This document shows, piece by piece, positions 59,896 through 64,000 of a stretch of 64,000 nt of DNA. A program made the translations under genes and the position numbers. The stretch is from a virus (taxonomy: Duplodnaviria; Caudoviricetes). Under the pieces are notes generated by a model. The model did not search any database. It saw only the letters and a list, made by a program, of their open reading frames with translations, and was not told where the DNA came from. Position 1 is the first letter of the stretch; every line of letters begins with the position of its first letter. The stretch spans positions 1-64,000 of the IMG/VR virus record IMGVR_UViG_3300012007_000014. The stretch is one strand, 5' to 3'.

Positions 59896-60048
59896 TTACA
59901 TTGGCAGAGAATGAATAAGCTGCTTTACTGTCTCTTTGTCGGTATCAGAAAGTTTGGTATAAGAATTAATAACTGTGGTCTCATCTTCACCACTATTAAT
60001 TCTTTCCCTTGCATTCCTAGCAATAATCCTAAGAATAAACATTGGCAT
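59896..60048 (-). CDS. Small hypothetical protein (50 aa, not in ORF track)
   Basis: GGAGGTG RBS; one-base overlap with upstream stop. Confidence 0.55.
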   Translation of the reverse strand: MPMFILRIIARNARERINSGEDETTVINSYTKLSDTDKETVKQLIHSLPM

Positions 60049-60341
60049 TAGGATACACCTCCCATACTAAGAGCAATTGCAGACTCAAGATCTGAAATTC
60101 TCTGTCTTAAAATATCAGTTGATGTGAAGTTACCGAAGATCACATGGTCCTTACCATCTTCCATAAAGTGCGCGACTACCTTATCGAAATTTGTGGTAAC
60201 GCCATCAATCTTCATGTTCTTAATTGTATCGTTTGTAAAGGCGTCACTAGGAACTACAGTATCAAAAATATAATTATTTCCGTTTAATGTAGCTTCGTAT
60301 GACTTTCCATTACTAAGTACAATTGTATGCTTCTCTTCCAT
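60048..60341 (-). CDS. Hypothetical protein, tail-fibre-associated type
   Basis: GGAGGT RBS inside the RT 3' end; LNGNNYI and C-terminal RISDLESAIA. Confidence 0.65.
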   Translation of the reverse strand: MEEKHTIVLSNGKSYEATLNGNNYIFDTVVPSDAFTNDTIKNMKIDGVTTNFDKVVAHFMEDGKDHVIFGNFTSTDILRQRISDLESAIALSMGGVS

Positions 60342-61410
60342 AAGCACCTCCATATAGAGTGAAAGCATGTGCAAATTGTTCGCTATAAAGGTTGTATAGA
60401 TTACAAAGTGTTCTTTTGGAGAGGATCTTTTTAAATGACATTATCCAAGATTTAAATGCATTCTCTACATCTTTGAAACTCATTCTTCCTTGTATGCAGA
60501 GCACAAATTGTTTCTTAAGTCTTCGTCTAAATGAAGAAATTCTTTTTGGATTCATGCGCTTGCAAAGATGACCTGATTTTGAGAGTCTGTAGCGAATCTG
60601 TAAGAAAGTAAACCCTCTAGATAGCTTATAAATATGTGTTTTACGAGTATTGACGTGAATACCAAGTTTGTTTGCAACAAGAATAGCTTTCTTCAAGAGA
60701 GACTTTAGAAACTCTTTTGACTTATGAACAATGCAAGAATCATCCATATATCTATCATAGTTTCTAATATGTTTTACAACTTTAAAGAACGTATCCCAAA
60801 TTGTAGGAAAATAAACTCCAAATATCTGAGAACATTGATCTCCTATTCCGCATGATATTGGCTTACTATTAATTTCAAAGTTCTTAAGAATTGTTTTGAT
60901 AAGCCAAATACAATCGGCATCAGTTAAATGCTTTTTCACTTGTTCCAATAGCTTATCATGTGGTATGGAATCATAATACTTCTTGAAGTCAATGATTAGG
61001 ATATACCCATCATTTCCATGATTCTTTCTGTAAAACTCATGGATCTTCTGCTCAAATCTACGTCTTGTGAATCCGATTCCTTTCCCTCTTACAGAAGCAC
61101 CATTGTCATGAATGAGATATGGGTATAAAGCTGGTTCTAAGACATAATCACAAAAGCATCTTCGTATGACTCTATCATAGAATGGATTGCTTCTAATATA
61201 TCTTATCTTTCCGCGCTCTCTTATTGTGAATTCTTTTCCTTTTCTTGGCTTATAAGTCTTTTCTTCAAGCTCTTGTCTTGTTTTTACAATATTAATAAGC
61301 CAATTTTGCTCGTAAATTTGAACGGAAGACTTCCAATCTGAGCCATTTTTAGACTTTTTGTAGGAATCATAGAGATGATTTAAATCTGTAAGTTCACTAT
61401 ATCCCTCCAT
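60313..61410 (-). CDS. DGR reverse transcriptase
   Basis: RGK.R.I, DRV, DFKKYYDSI.H, GIGDQCSQ (DGR-type SQ), RYMDD, FTFL motifs; adjacent TR and avd. Confidence 0.95.
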   Translation of the reverse strand: MEGYSELTDLNHLYDSYKKSKNGSDWKSSVQIYEQNWLINIVKTRQELEEKTYKPRKGKEFTIRERGKIRYIRSNPFYDRVIRRCFCDYVLEPALYPYLIHDNGASVRGKGIGFTRRRFEQKIHEFYRKNHGNDGYILIIDFKKYYDSIPHDKLLEQVKKHLTDADCIWLIKTILKNFEINSKPISCGIGDQCSQIFGVYFPTIWDTFFKVVKHIRNYDRYMDDSCIVHKSKEFLKSLLKKAILVANKLGIHVNTRKTHIYKLSRGFTFLQIRYRLSKSGHLCKRMNPKRISSFRRRLKKQFVLCIQGRMSFKDVENAFKSWIMSFKKILSKRTLCNLYNLYSEQFAHAFTLYGGAYGREAYNCT

Positions 61411-61589
61411 AAACAATAATTCCTTTATATTTATTAGCCTTAAATTAGAGTGGAAATTAGTCGGCTAGAGATAACAGACGTATCTGATCTCATCTAATAT
61501 GGAGATATTCTCCACCCACTCCTTTATTTCTCCATTTAGCTGGAAGGGACTAAATCTCCTTCTCCTGATCCATTTCTGAACCAAAAGAA

Positions 61590-61679
61590 TCCCAAAACGC
61601 TGTTCCAAGTATTCGAAGCGTTGTTCCTATTCGCGTTACCATTGTTGTTGACATTCGCAAAGTTAGATGCTGACACAAC
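61590..61679 (-). repeat. DGR template repeat (TR)
   Basis: GTTGTGTCAGCATCTAACTTTGCGAATGTCAACAACAATGGTAACGCGAATAGGAACAACGCTTCGAATACTTGGAACAGCGTTTTGGGA; AAC/AAT-rich; aligns without gaps to 62306-62395. Confidence 0.95.
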
Positions 61680-61695
61680 GGAAAAGTTTACAGAT

Positions 61696-62196
61696 CTAGC
61701 CCACAGGAAAGTAAACTCCTTGCTTTTCCTGATTTTTCTTTAACTTTCTAAATTGTTGTAAATCTTTGTTTTTAATCGAACGAAGTAAGTCAATTTCTTT
61801 GACAATCAGTTGGGTAAGCCGATAATACTTATTAATATTTACGTCTATATTTTGAGCACGAGAAGTTTCTATAAAAGTCATACAGACTTGTTCCAATTTA
61901 TAGCAAGCCGCAATTGCTTTTATTAATTGTTCTCTTCTATACTTCAGATCAATGTCCGTTACAACCTTGCAGCATCCAGCATTAGAAACTCTAAGATGAA
62001 GTTCTCTTACTTGTTTATACATATCGTCTCTTGCAAGTGTGATATAATTGATAAAGACCTGAGGGTAATTGCGTGCTTTTGCTGTATCAATACCTAAATC
62101 AGTAAGGACGTAATTTAATAATTCATTCTTGATCTGGTGAGTTACATGAAACGCTTCGTTACAAGATGGTTTCCTCTCACCTTTCTTAACACTCAT
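61696..62196 (-). CDS. avd: DGR accessory variability determinant (Avd-like four-helix protein)
   Basis: MSVKK.ERK.S start, basic helical 166-aa protein between target and TR. Confidence 0.75.
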   Translation of the reverse strand: MSVKKGERKPSCNEAFHVTHQIKNELLNYVLTDLGIDTAKARNYPQVFINYITLARDDMYKQVRELHLRVSNAGCCKVVTDIDLKYRREQLIKAIAACYKLEQVCMTFIETSRAQNIDVNINKYYRLTQLIVKEIDLLRSIKNKDLQQFRKLKKNQEKQGVYFPVG

Positions 62197-62250
62197 TGTT
62201 ATCTCCTATTGTTCTGCCCGATAATATCAGAATAGGCTGAAAACGGCCTC

Positions 62251-62278
62251 GCTTCGCTCGGATCGCTGCGTACGCAGC
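62251..62278 (-). other. DGR target-recognition hairpin/cruciform region
   Basis: Perfect 14-bp palindrome GCTGCGTACGCAGC (62265-62278) and GCGAAGC mini-hairpin (62251-62257) just after the target stop codon. Confidence 0.75.
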
Positions 62279-62287
62279 TCGTAATTT

Positions 62288-63166
62288 TTAATGGATCAGG
62301 TAGTAGCCCAAAACGCCGTACCAAGTAAACGAAGCGTAGTACCTATACGCGCCACCATAGTAGTCGACACCCGCGAAGTCAGACGCCGACACGACGTCTC
62401 TTAACCAAATACTTATTTTTCTATTCATACTTGACTGATCAAACTTAAAAAGTGCAATCTGATTCTTCGAGCATCCAGTATTATATAGACCTGCTCCAGC
62501 ATTATTTGCGCCGTTTACAACAGTCCCATAATACATTGCTTCGTTGAAGATGTTATAAATTGTGTCTACCCATTCACCACCAGTAGGAACACCATCTGTA
62601 ACAGCATTTGAAATGTACTCTCTATGTTTTAAAAGATGATTTCCAAATGCTGTAGTAATATCGGGAAGAATCTGATTTGGAATTGTAGTATTCCACATCT
62701 TTGAACCCTTAAATCCACCAGCAGTGGTATCGGTATCATTCATGAAATGCGTAGTTGATCCATCTGCAGTAAGATCTACACCATCGTCAACCATTAAAAG
62801 GTGATGACCTAATTCGACGTTATCTCCACAATGAATGAAGTAATCGATATCACCAATGCGTCTTGTCTTTCCATTAATCACCCAGTAATCACCAACATAC
62901 ATATCTGTAAAGGTGCCATTCTGTACTGCTTGTGACTGCTCGGTTGTGAAAGAAGTTCCAAGATTCTTTCCTCGATAGATCATTCTATGAGAAATTGCAG
63001 GAGGGCAAAGCTCCATGATTGCCCTAAGATCTGCTGCCTTTGCAGCGACATTGTCCTGAAACTTCGATACTGGCATTCTTCTAAGTCCTGAAGTAGCTCC
63101 TGTAATCAGGACACTATCATCCGAATTAAACCCGCTAGTTGATGGATAATTGTTTACTTGACTCAT
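62288..63166 (-). CDS. DGR target protein with C-terminal C-type-lectin-fold variable domain (probable adhesin/receptor-binding protein)
   Basis: GDYW.ING...RIGD..YF...G; MN.T.TT.GG..GS.M; WLRDVVSAS.FA.V...G......AS...GV; contains VR. Confidence 0.9.
   Translation of the reverse strand: MSQVNNYPSTSGFNSDDSVLITGATSGLRRMPVSKFQDNVAAKAADLRAIMELCPPAISHRMIYRGKNLGTSFTTEQSQAVQNGTFTDMYVGDYWVINGKTRRIGDIDYFIHCGDNVELGHHLLMVDDGVDLTADGSTTHFMNDTDTTAGGFKGSKMWNTTIPNQILPDITTAFGNHLLKHREYISNAVTDGVPTGGEWVDTIYNIFNEAMYYGTVVNGANNAGAGLYNTGCSKNQIALFKFDQSSMNRKISIWLRDVVSASDFAGVDYYGGAYRYYASFTWYGVLGYYLIH
62306..62395 (-). repeat. DGR variable repeat (VR)
   Basis: 90 nt; 18 mismatches at TR adenines, only 2 at non-adenine positions (both T to C, synonymous). 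Confidence 0.95.
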
Positions 63167-63181
63167 TTATTTTATTCTCCT

Positions 63182-64000
63182 TTATGCTGTAGCAATAGAA
63201 GCCTTTAAATCTTCTATCTGCTTATCCATTTTCTTTACTCGAAGCCGGTACCAATTCTCAATCTGTGCAAAGTCCATCCCATTTGGTTCTGTTCTAAAGA
63301 GTCTCCTGTCTGCTTCAATTGCATTCATTGGAATCTTGCGAATAAAGCTTAGGAACTCTCTATAAACATTCTCTTCAGAAAACACGGTTGAGCGCAGATA
63401 TTCATACCTGTCAATTAGTCTTTGGGGATCATAAGTCCAGATCATATGCATTGCTCTGTTGTGACCATCCCAGCCTTTAAGCGATGGAGATCCTTCATCT
63501 GGTCTCCAAAGAAGATTCGGATTTTTAGAATCAGGGCACCAGTTTCCCCAAGTCGTATCAAGGTCGTAAGCGGAAAAGAACCATTTTGTTCCGTCATATG
63601 TCACAAGAAGCCAGTTCTTACCAACATCATCCGCTGCATTAATGAGGGAACTGAAGATCATGTAATCTACAACAGAATCGTAGTCCAAATACTGTGCAGA
63701 AACCTTCTTATAATTTGTATCTTTGTTATCCTTACCAGTGCTATCAACAACAGACTGAATCATGGTATTAAGAGATGCTCTAAACTTTGTGTTATCAGCT
63801 TCATACTTAGACAGATCTTCCTTGTAAGCATCATCATCTACACCCTTGTCATAATCAGAAGGCTTTGGTTTTTCATTTGGAATGCACTCATAAGTCCATG
63901 CAGTCGATTTCCCAGAAACGTCTTCACCTTCTTCTGCGTCCACGACTAAGTTTGCCGCCTTAAATCCACCAGCACCATCTGTTCCAGCACCTTCATTAGA
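63182..64000 (-). CDS. CotH-kinase-domain protein, 5' end outside the window
   Basis: YLD.DS.VDY.IF.......DD.GKNW.L.T.DG.KW....YDLD.TWG; frame stays open to base 64000. Confidence 0.75.
   Translation of the reverse strand, partial: SNEGAGTDGAGGFKAANLVVDAEEGEDVSGKSTAWTYECIPNEKPKPSDYDKGVDDDAYKEDLSKYEADNTKFRASLNTMIQSVVDSTGKDNKDTNYKKVSAQYLDYDSVVDYMIFSSLINAADDVGKNWLLVTYDGTKWFFSAYDLDTTWGNWCPDSKNPNLLWRPDEGSPSLKGWDGHNRAMHMIWTYDPQRLIDRYEYLRSTVFSEENVYREFLSFIRKIPMNAIEADRRLFRTEPNGMDFAQIENWYRLRVKKMDKQIEDLKASIATA

Follow-up and report, generated by a model that had tools for sequence, protein, structure and literature searches.

The locus described here raises the question of whether the RNA of a diversity-generating retroelement (DGR) can find the gene that it diversifies by base pairing. 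It lies in a 64,000-nt window (positions 1 to 64,000 of the 81.5-kb IMG/VR virus record IMGVR_UViG_3300012007_000014), the minus strand of which, judged from its sequence, carries a complete and active DGR in the order target gene, GC-rich inverted repeat, avd-like gene, template repeat (TR), 179-nt spacer (61411–61589), and reverse transcriptase (RT). This assignment follows from the concentration of repeat differences at TR adenines: the variable repeat (VR) of the target gene (62305–62396, minus strand), an ungapped 92-nt match to the TR, has 20 mismatches to it over the 92 positions, 18 of them at TR adenines, and 19 of the 21 positions at which it departs from the VR of the 98%-identical contig L001, which is near-identical to the window outside the VR, are likewise TR adenines, as in ongoing diversification. 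Homology between the VR and the TR (61590–61680, minus strand, as delimited by the TR/VR comparison) stops at 61589/62305. Fifteen nucleotides past the TR, the spacer contains CCTGATCCATT (61564–61574), the exact reverse complement of AATGGATCAGG (62290–62300), which spans the last 3.5 codons of the target gene and the first base of its stop codon (..Y Y L I H stop). An initial annotation of the window had singled out this inverted repeat, correctly setting it in a minus-strand DGR with one copy about 15 nt after the TR and the other just 3′ of the VR, beyond TR/VR identity, and had suggested that the spacer acts as a guide. Our analysis assigns to the spacer segment, with high confidence, a primary role that the annotation overlooked, that of primer strand in a BPP-1-type cis-priming hairpin, in which it forms the local template:primer duplex. 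Comparative covariation also raises the odds of the suggested guiding role, which we consider reasonably probable for this element.

A probable primer strand complementary to two flanks

The 11-nt word occurs in just these two exact copies within the window. Of 20,000 24-mers taken at random from the window, 22 were exactly complementary over at least 11 nt to the first 60 nt of the spacer, several of these being the locus itself, and the chance probability of this specific pairing is about p = 1e-3. Complementarity continues past the 11-mer as far as the adenosine from which priming is predicted: 15 of 16 primer positions are paired, and the interruptions are a bulged A and an A·A mismatch.

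Folding was carried out on a 320-nt DGR RNA (avd 3′ end, TR, and spacer) and on a 920-nt RNA running from the target end to the RT start. Two helices are common to the minimum free energy (MFE) structures of both RNAs, and the RNAalifold consensus of five relatives yields the same two. One is a 13-bp hairpin in which 61589–61577, the strand immediately 3′ of the TR, pairs with spacer positions 61572–61560 through nine Watson–Crick and four G·U pairs, closed in the MFE fold by a GAAA tetraloop (61573–61576); the primer Gs at 61564, 61565, and 61570 are in wobble pairs. The other is an 11-bp duplex between the 3′ end of avd (61692–61702), including its stop codon, and spacer positions 61547–61557, part of the spacer strand delimited as 61546–61557; it shows compensatory changes both within the clade and across clades, and in all related clades it starts two nucleotides after an adenosine. 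In the structure of the BPP-1 RNA, a TR117–129:Sp47–56 duplex, the priming nucleotide A56, two nucleotides, and an avd:Sp “cPRT Stop” duplex follow one another (10.1101/2023.10.23.563531). Because the hairpin, two nucleotides, and avd:spacer duplex of the window element match this arrangement, 61560–61572 is best read as the primer strand, homologous to Sp47–56, with A61560 as the predicted priming adenosine, A61590 as the predicted first templated nucleotide, the GG at 61558–61559 as the probable counterpart of Sp57–58, and the avd:spacer duplex as the likely counterpart of the “cPRT Stop” duplex. Thus the structure comes from folding and covariation, and its role is assigned by homology. The 11-mer comprises nine nucleotides of the primer strand and two of the loop and ends 4 nt before A61560, in agreement with the earlier proposal that priming occurs a few nucleotides past it. 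The majority of the DGRs examined have the same order of A, GG, and spacer strand. The avd stop codon itself (UAG, 61698–61696) lies inside the avd:spacer duplex, so that the “stop” duplex would compete with avd translation for the same RNA.

The hairpin is nearly invariant. Across the five closest genomes its stems vary in 2 of 26 columns, as against 32 of 62 in the other spacer helices (p = 8e-5), and among relatives the loop changes in sequence and length while the stems stay constant; the equivalent hairpin in a sister clade covaries. This near-invariance is of note since base-specific protein contacts to the template:primer duplex are almost absent in BPP-1 (10.1101/2023.10.23.563531). 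A three-way constraint, in which one sequence must suit the primer, its hairpin partner, and a coding target flank, would explain it.

The third party to that constraint is the sequence 3′ of the VR (62288–62305, minus strand), which encodes the last residues YYLIH and the stop codon (UAC UAC CUG AUC CAU UAA) and is kept in relatives with synonymous changes only. It resembles the initiation of mutagenic homing (IMH) element of other DGRs, and 61577–61589 its TR counterpart, IMH*, as folding and alignment suggest: an imperfect repeat follows the adenine-mutagenized region in both VR and TR. The 14-bp GC-rich element expected at the start of an IMH was not found; the end of TR/VR, GCGUUUUGGG, is not rich in GC. 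Over 13 aligned positions the target and TR flanks share seven identities and differ by four transitions and two transversions, with one gap, and the transitions turn Watson–Crick pairs with the primer into G·U pairs. The primer is therefore perfect for the target flank, with which it forms 11 contiguous Watson–Crick pairs, and rich in wobbles toward its own hairpin partner, with nine Watson–Crick and four G·U pairs; the corresponding duplex energies are −19.0 kcal/mol with the VR flank and −13.7 kcal/mol with the TR flank. The same asymmetry has been reported for BPP-1, the primer of which pairs better with IMH than with IMH* (Naorem et al. 2017; PMC5703328). In our check of the BPP-1 genome, Sp47–56 forms nine Watson–Crick pairs and one G·U pair with VR118–127 and seven canonical pairs with TR118–127, in agreement with the seven canonical and three nonstandard template:primer pairs of the structure paper (10.1101/2023.10.23.563531).

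Covariation of primer and target flank

Among the closer relatives, contigs L004–L009 (Avd 49–94% identical) retain both 11-mer sites, and their target flanks differ by synonymous changes only, of which UAC to UAU and CUG to UUG keep a wobble pair with the primer. On comparison of the sequences, L063 (RT 63% identical) is the decisive case in this group. Its leucine codon is UUA where the window has CUG, so that the VR flank CUUAAUCC faces the primer GGAUUAAG in place of the window pair CCUGAUCC and GGAUCAGG: two compensatory primer:target pairs have arisen at a synonymous codon, and the TR flank has changed too. As MAFFT misplaced a 1-nt indel of L063, which shifted the pairing register in the long alignment, these pairs were tabulated by script.

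To these were added about 120 further loci, gathered with RT profiles, in which TR and VR were located and the priming adenosine was placed from the duplex that the spacer forms with sequence lying upstream of the TR. As the longest contiguous run did not identify the template register in BPP-1 or in several GenBank phages, pairing was scored by register-free duplex energies. A departure from simple priming was met in a sister clade of 12 loci (L136, L165, L164, L122, L169, L139, L167, L149, L148, L147, L168, and L154), where the 7-bp stem of the hairpin closes a 9-nt loop (e.g., CCUAACCAA) for which the TR flank offers no partner. A complement of this loop (UUGGUUAG/AA) stands 8–15 nt past the VR in 11 of the 12 loci and almost nowhere else in 5–6 kb, and the duplex of loop plus primer with the target flank has an energy of −12.5 to −19.7 kcal/mol, compared with −5.4 to −8.8 kcal/mol for the hairpin. 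Compensatory changes accompany this pairing in L154 (AUUAACCAAC with GUUGGUUAAU) and L169 (CUUAACCAAUGA with UCAUUGGUUAAG), and the L122 primer has changed in step with its target (CAG to CCG opposite CUG to CGG), which leaves an A·C mismatch in its own hairpin.

A better match to the target flank than to the TR flank also occurs in lineages with other sequences. In L124 the target flank is UUCCCCA, the TR flank UUCUUCA, and the primer UGGGGAA; in L096 the primer forms 12 contiguous pairs with the target, while its pairing with the TR is interrupted; and L098, L013/L092/L093, and the Selenomonas-group clade behave alike. When 30 flanks were ranked for each primer, using only sequence beyond the end of TR/VR homology, the cognate flank fell within the top 10% for 15 of 30 primer clusters (binomial p = 4e-8, a value that overstates the case because the clusters are phylogenetically nonindependent). 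Fourteen clusters had z below −2 against shuffles, and the positive clusters come from at least six separate sequence families. One apparent positive, L051, was set aside, as an indel breaks its TR/VR alignment.

The survey also revealed features of the spacers themselves. Most spacers of L049–L062 and L064–L171 contain an A, then GG, then the strand that pairs upstream of the TR, often as AAAGG, and the Selenomonas-group clade has AU in place of GG; this landmark offers a simple anchor for genome-wide prediction of priming sites. In L022, L103, and L131 the distal primer strand also complements the 5′ arm of the GC-rich hairpin after the VR (UCUGCGA), a match not common to the other members of their clade.

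Proposed primer guidance and competing explanations

Our preferred model joins priming and homing in a single RNA strand. Pairing of 61589–61577 with 61572–61560 would set A61560 next to the first template nucleotide, A61590, and complementary DNA (cDNA) synthesis would start from A61560 and copy the TR. The primer strand is the perfect Watson–Crick complement of the target’s own 3′ flank and its hairpin partner a degraded copy of that flank, one that, as its bases indicate, keeps its pairing mostly through G·U wobbles. After reverse transcription, the RNA primer would stay joined to the 5′ end of the cDNA, as in the model of Naorem et al. 2017. The joined primer would then anneal to the IMH-like flank on the target sense strand while the cDNA anneals to the adjoining VR, and the annealing of the primer would set both the homing site and the donor-to-recipient direction. 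The TR DNA would be a poor target, its flank matching the primer only via wobble pairs; in BPP-1, a TR in which IMH* is replaced by IMH is reported to become variable itself. The initial annotation had envisaged an RNA–cDNA chimera in register with the target, and the molecule predicted here would indeed lie in that register on the target sense strand, save for the 1-nt bulge. For this element we lean toward such guidance. The broader proposition, that in many DGR lineages the primer strand, and sometimes the hairpin loop, is a true RNA guide that reads the target flank by Watson–Crick pairing and so fixes the site and direction of retrohoming, the TR being spared since its own flank pairs by G·U wobbles, with mismatches, or not at all, is put forward more tentatively, as a possibility that we hold at somewhat less than even.

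The guide idea is already published for BPP-1, and the window element brings no new mechanism. Naorem et al. proposed that the RNA primer guides the cDNA, that this pairing explains directionality, and that the primer-cDNA anneals like an Okazaki fragment (PMC5703328), and the BPP-1 DGR is also covered by Handa et al. 2018 (PMC6182149). In a 2026 study, the DGR cDNA integration step is still described as unknown, and preferred targets have the cDNA-complementary strand as the lagging-strand template (PMC12875486). A large DGR survey catalogued IMH and IMH* and did not compare them to the spacer, and we found no paper in the literature that tests primer:flank complementarity across DGRs. To our knowledge, the sole concrete proposal for IMH recognition rests on one sequence comparison in BPP-1. 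What does appear to be new is the comparative evidence for a spacer that changes with the target flank and not with its own partner.

Several observations weigh against a guiding role or limit its reach. The target flank is coding and so would be conserved for that reason too, a synonymous change of CAU to CAC in L006 and L063 disrupts the terminal pair, and the five closest relatives show no compensatory change in primer:target pairing. Covariation cannot separate pairing of the RNA with DNA from pairing with the target transcript, nothing in these data distinguishes selection from conversion, and the priming site and homing role of this element are predictions. The complementarity and covariation that the initial annotation proposed to look for in other DGRs were found in several clades, and the extended complementarity is missing elsewhere. 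In the largest sister clade, with a primer ending in GAGAAA, the distal stem is long, covarying, and TR specific, and 5–7 bp are common with the target flank; of 14 GenBank phage DGRs retrieved by tblastn, most have just 4–7 bp beside the priming adenosine; and the better partner of the primer is the TR flank, both in that clade and in the majority of these GenBank elements. A universal extended primer:target pairing was therefore rejected. With only 4–7 bp common with the VR flank in many DGRs, extended guide pairing is not a general requirement, and the pattern across clades marks it as lineage-specific.

These sister-clade and GenBank elements are also what would be seen if the match were a by-product of common ancestry, IMH and IMH* deriving from one repeat and the spacer being selected only for priming on IMH*, with the IMH match a leftover. 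The two flanks are still alignable, with seven identities and four transitions over 13 positions, and in L063 IMH* changed along with IMH and the primer. Selection on the hairpin only, however, predicts a primer that fits IMH* better than IMH, the reverse of the perfect match to IMH and wobbling match to IMH* seen here and repeated in BPP-1, L013/L092/L093, L096, L098, L124, and the Selenomonas clade, and it does not account for L122, where the primer tracks the target at the expense of its own hairpin. In the 12-locus clade the complementarity to the target is carried by a loop, which is never paired with IMH*, and a pure by-product of ancestry fails there because the loop has no IMH* partner. 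We thus regard descent from a shared repeat as an unlikely explanation of the match. An exchange of partners at the level of RNA is a little less probable again. In this case the target 3′ end would pair with the spacer, either within a read-through transcript or in trans with the target mRNA, which could regulate priming or translation or present the VR as an alternative template, and would not guide integration into DNA. Co-transcription of target and avd is plausible given that the sense strand between the two genes showed neither a terminator-like site nor a good promoter match, the pairing is stronger than the local hairpin (−19.0 vs. −13.7 kcal/mol), and covariation is equally compatible with it. 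Yet in both the MFE and the centroid structure of the 920-nt transcript the local hairpin persists and the target flank is single-stranded, and we know of no such RNA:RNA role in DGRs. The same fold speaks against a further suggestion of the initial annotation, that avd and TR are looped out by pairing of the two sites in a single transcript; covariation by itself does not discriminate against this arrangement, which folding does not favor. In BPP-1, furthermore, the IMH acts as a DNA target element and works when transplanted beside a foreign gene (PMC5703328, PMC3240598).

The direction of cause might also be the opposite one, with the match maintained because homing sometimes copies or repairs the target flank against the RNA primer, so that complementarity would be a consequence of conversion and not a means of targeting. 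The target flank does follow the primer even at synonymous sites, and in BPP-1 the cDNA to which the primer is attached integrates immediately next to this flank (10.1101/2023.10.23.563531; PMC5703328). Against this, BPP-1 markers 3′ of about TR107–112 are not transferred (PMC5703328, PMC3240598), and the nucleotide opposite A61590 is a C in all VRs of the clade, from which it follows that the extreme 3′ end of TR/VR is not rewritten; the flank is, in addition, under protein-coding constraint. We give conversion less credence than either of the preceding two accounts. Least of all do we expect a chance match between two independently conserved sequences: an 11-nt inverted repeat somewhere in 64 kb is not rare, but the probability for this specific pair of regions is low, as given above, and the conservation and covariation of the match, which recurs in other clades with different sequences, exclude chance as its source.

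The remaining cassette and its wider context

Several likenesses tie the window element to BPP-1: the order target, avd, TR, spacer, RT; the succession of template:primer duplex, priming A, two nucleotides, and avd:spacer duplex; a primer strand that favors the target IMH over the TR IMH*; and a GC-rich inverted repeat after the target. The two differ in that the window element lacks a (GC)14 element, its IMH and IMH* are only about half identical, compared with 16/21 in BPP-1, and its IMH* pairs with the primer through four G·U wobbles where BPP-1 tolerates mismatches. Its hairpin is local, with a 4-nt loop, whereas the BPP-1 RNA folds back over about 45 nt, and its RT is only distantly related (E = 2.9e-11 to 8ub7), the priming nucleotide being assigned by homology. 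Beyond DGRs, group II introns, retroelements related to DGR RTs, offer a parallel in their retrohoming, where exon-binding and intron-binding sites (EBS–IBS) allow the RNA of a retroelement to pick a DNA site by short covarying base pairs. The likeness would be one of logic, not of membership: there is no ribozyme or reverse splicing here, and the RNA would merely position a ready-made cDNA. Retron msr-msd elements share cis-priming from an internal purine beside a duplex and a covalent RNA–cDNA molecule, the retron cDNA branching from the 2′-OH of a specific RNA nucleotide. However, the priming nucleotide of retrons is a G, they lack both a TR/VR pair and homing, and no retron features were found in the window element.

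The target gene (62288–63166, minus strand; 292 aa) bears the VR at its 3′ end, and its product had no sequence match in Pfam, PHROG, or PDB. Two VR differences from the TR, at VR positions 4 and 22 (62393 and 62375), are T-to-C changes at nonadenine sites; both are missing from L001, and so they probably represent recent point changes or rare RT errors at non-A positions. The Logan contigs of the relatives L004, L005, L008, and L009 end about 115–125 nt upstream of avd, within the VR 3′ end. These assembly breaks probably come from VR heterogeneity in the population, and breaks of this kind may serve as a practical hint for spotting active DGRs. Nine nucleotides (62279–62287) separate the target stop codon from the GC-rich inverted repeat (62265–62278, minus strand), a 5-bp stem with a 4-nt loop that belongs with the DGR target hairpin/cruciform features (PMC3240598). 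Its stem covaries in relatives (GCUGC/GCAGC, GCGAC/GUCGC, GCUAC/GUAGC, and GCCGC/GCGGC), and its loop (GUAC, GAAC, or GAAU) is unlike the GRNA consensus of the same study.

The avd-like gene (61696–62196, minus strand; 166 aa) fits Avd in placement and size, and its position between target and TR is kept in relatives. Its product had no match in Pfam, PHROG, or PDB sequence searches. An AlphaFold2 model (pLDDT 82) is a helical bundle, with 2rld and 2gsc, of the IVP/“S23 ribosomal” four-helix family, as best folds (TM 0.72–0.78, at weak E-values of about 0.2). The RT (60313–61410, minus strand; 365 aa) matches RVT_1 (2.5e-13), phrog_1423 (7e-64), and, at 2.9e-11, PDB 8ub7 chain A (“Reverse transcriptase,” 328 aa), which we take to be the BPP-1 bRT. 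The I-G-x-x-x-S-Q motif of DGR-type RTs is present as IGDQCSQ and is invariant across the clade alignment. Between primer region and RT, the remaining spacer (61411–61545, minus strand) forms several stem-loops with many compensatory changes in the five relatives, and these are candidate Avd- or RT-binding elements like those described for BPP-1.

A small open reading frame of 108 aa without a family (60048–60374, minus strand) overlaps the 3′ end of the RT gene, and a similar one follows the RT in L007 and several GenBank phage DGRs. Just upstream of the target, a gene that exits the window (63182–64000, minus strand) encodes a CotH kinase domain (PF08757, 4.5e-15), an unusual neighbor for a tail-fiber-like DGR target. 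Blastn of the cassette against GenBank phages gave no match, a metagenome scan gave a single distant locus, a scan of IMG/VR with the spacer motif gave the near-identical contig only, and no Rfam family matched.

Collectively, these comparisons show that the asymmetry reported for BPP-1, a primer that is better for the target flank than for its own partner, is present in unrelated sequences, and compensation at synonymous sites, together with a loop version that priming cannot explain, turns what was an anecdote into a testable rule. They also supply natural systems in which the target flank could be recoded without touching the priming hairpin. If the proposed guidance is true, the targets of DGRs would be predictable, and retargetable, from the spacer sequence. 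The finding is also relevant to the engineering of DGRs for directed evolution, where the IMH is now carried along as a black box.

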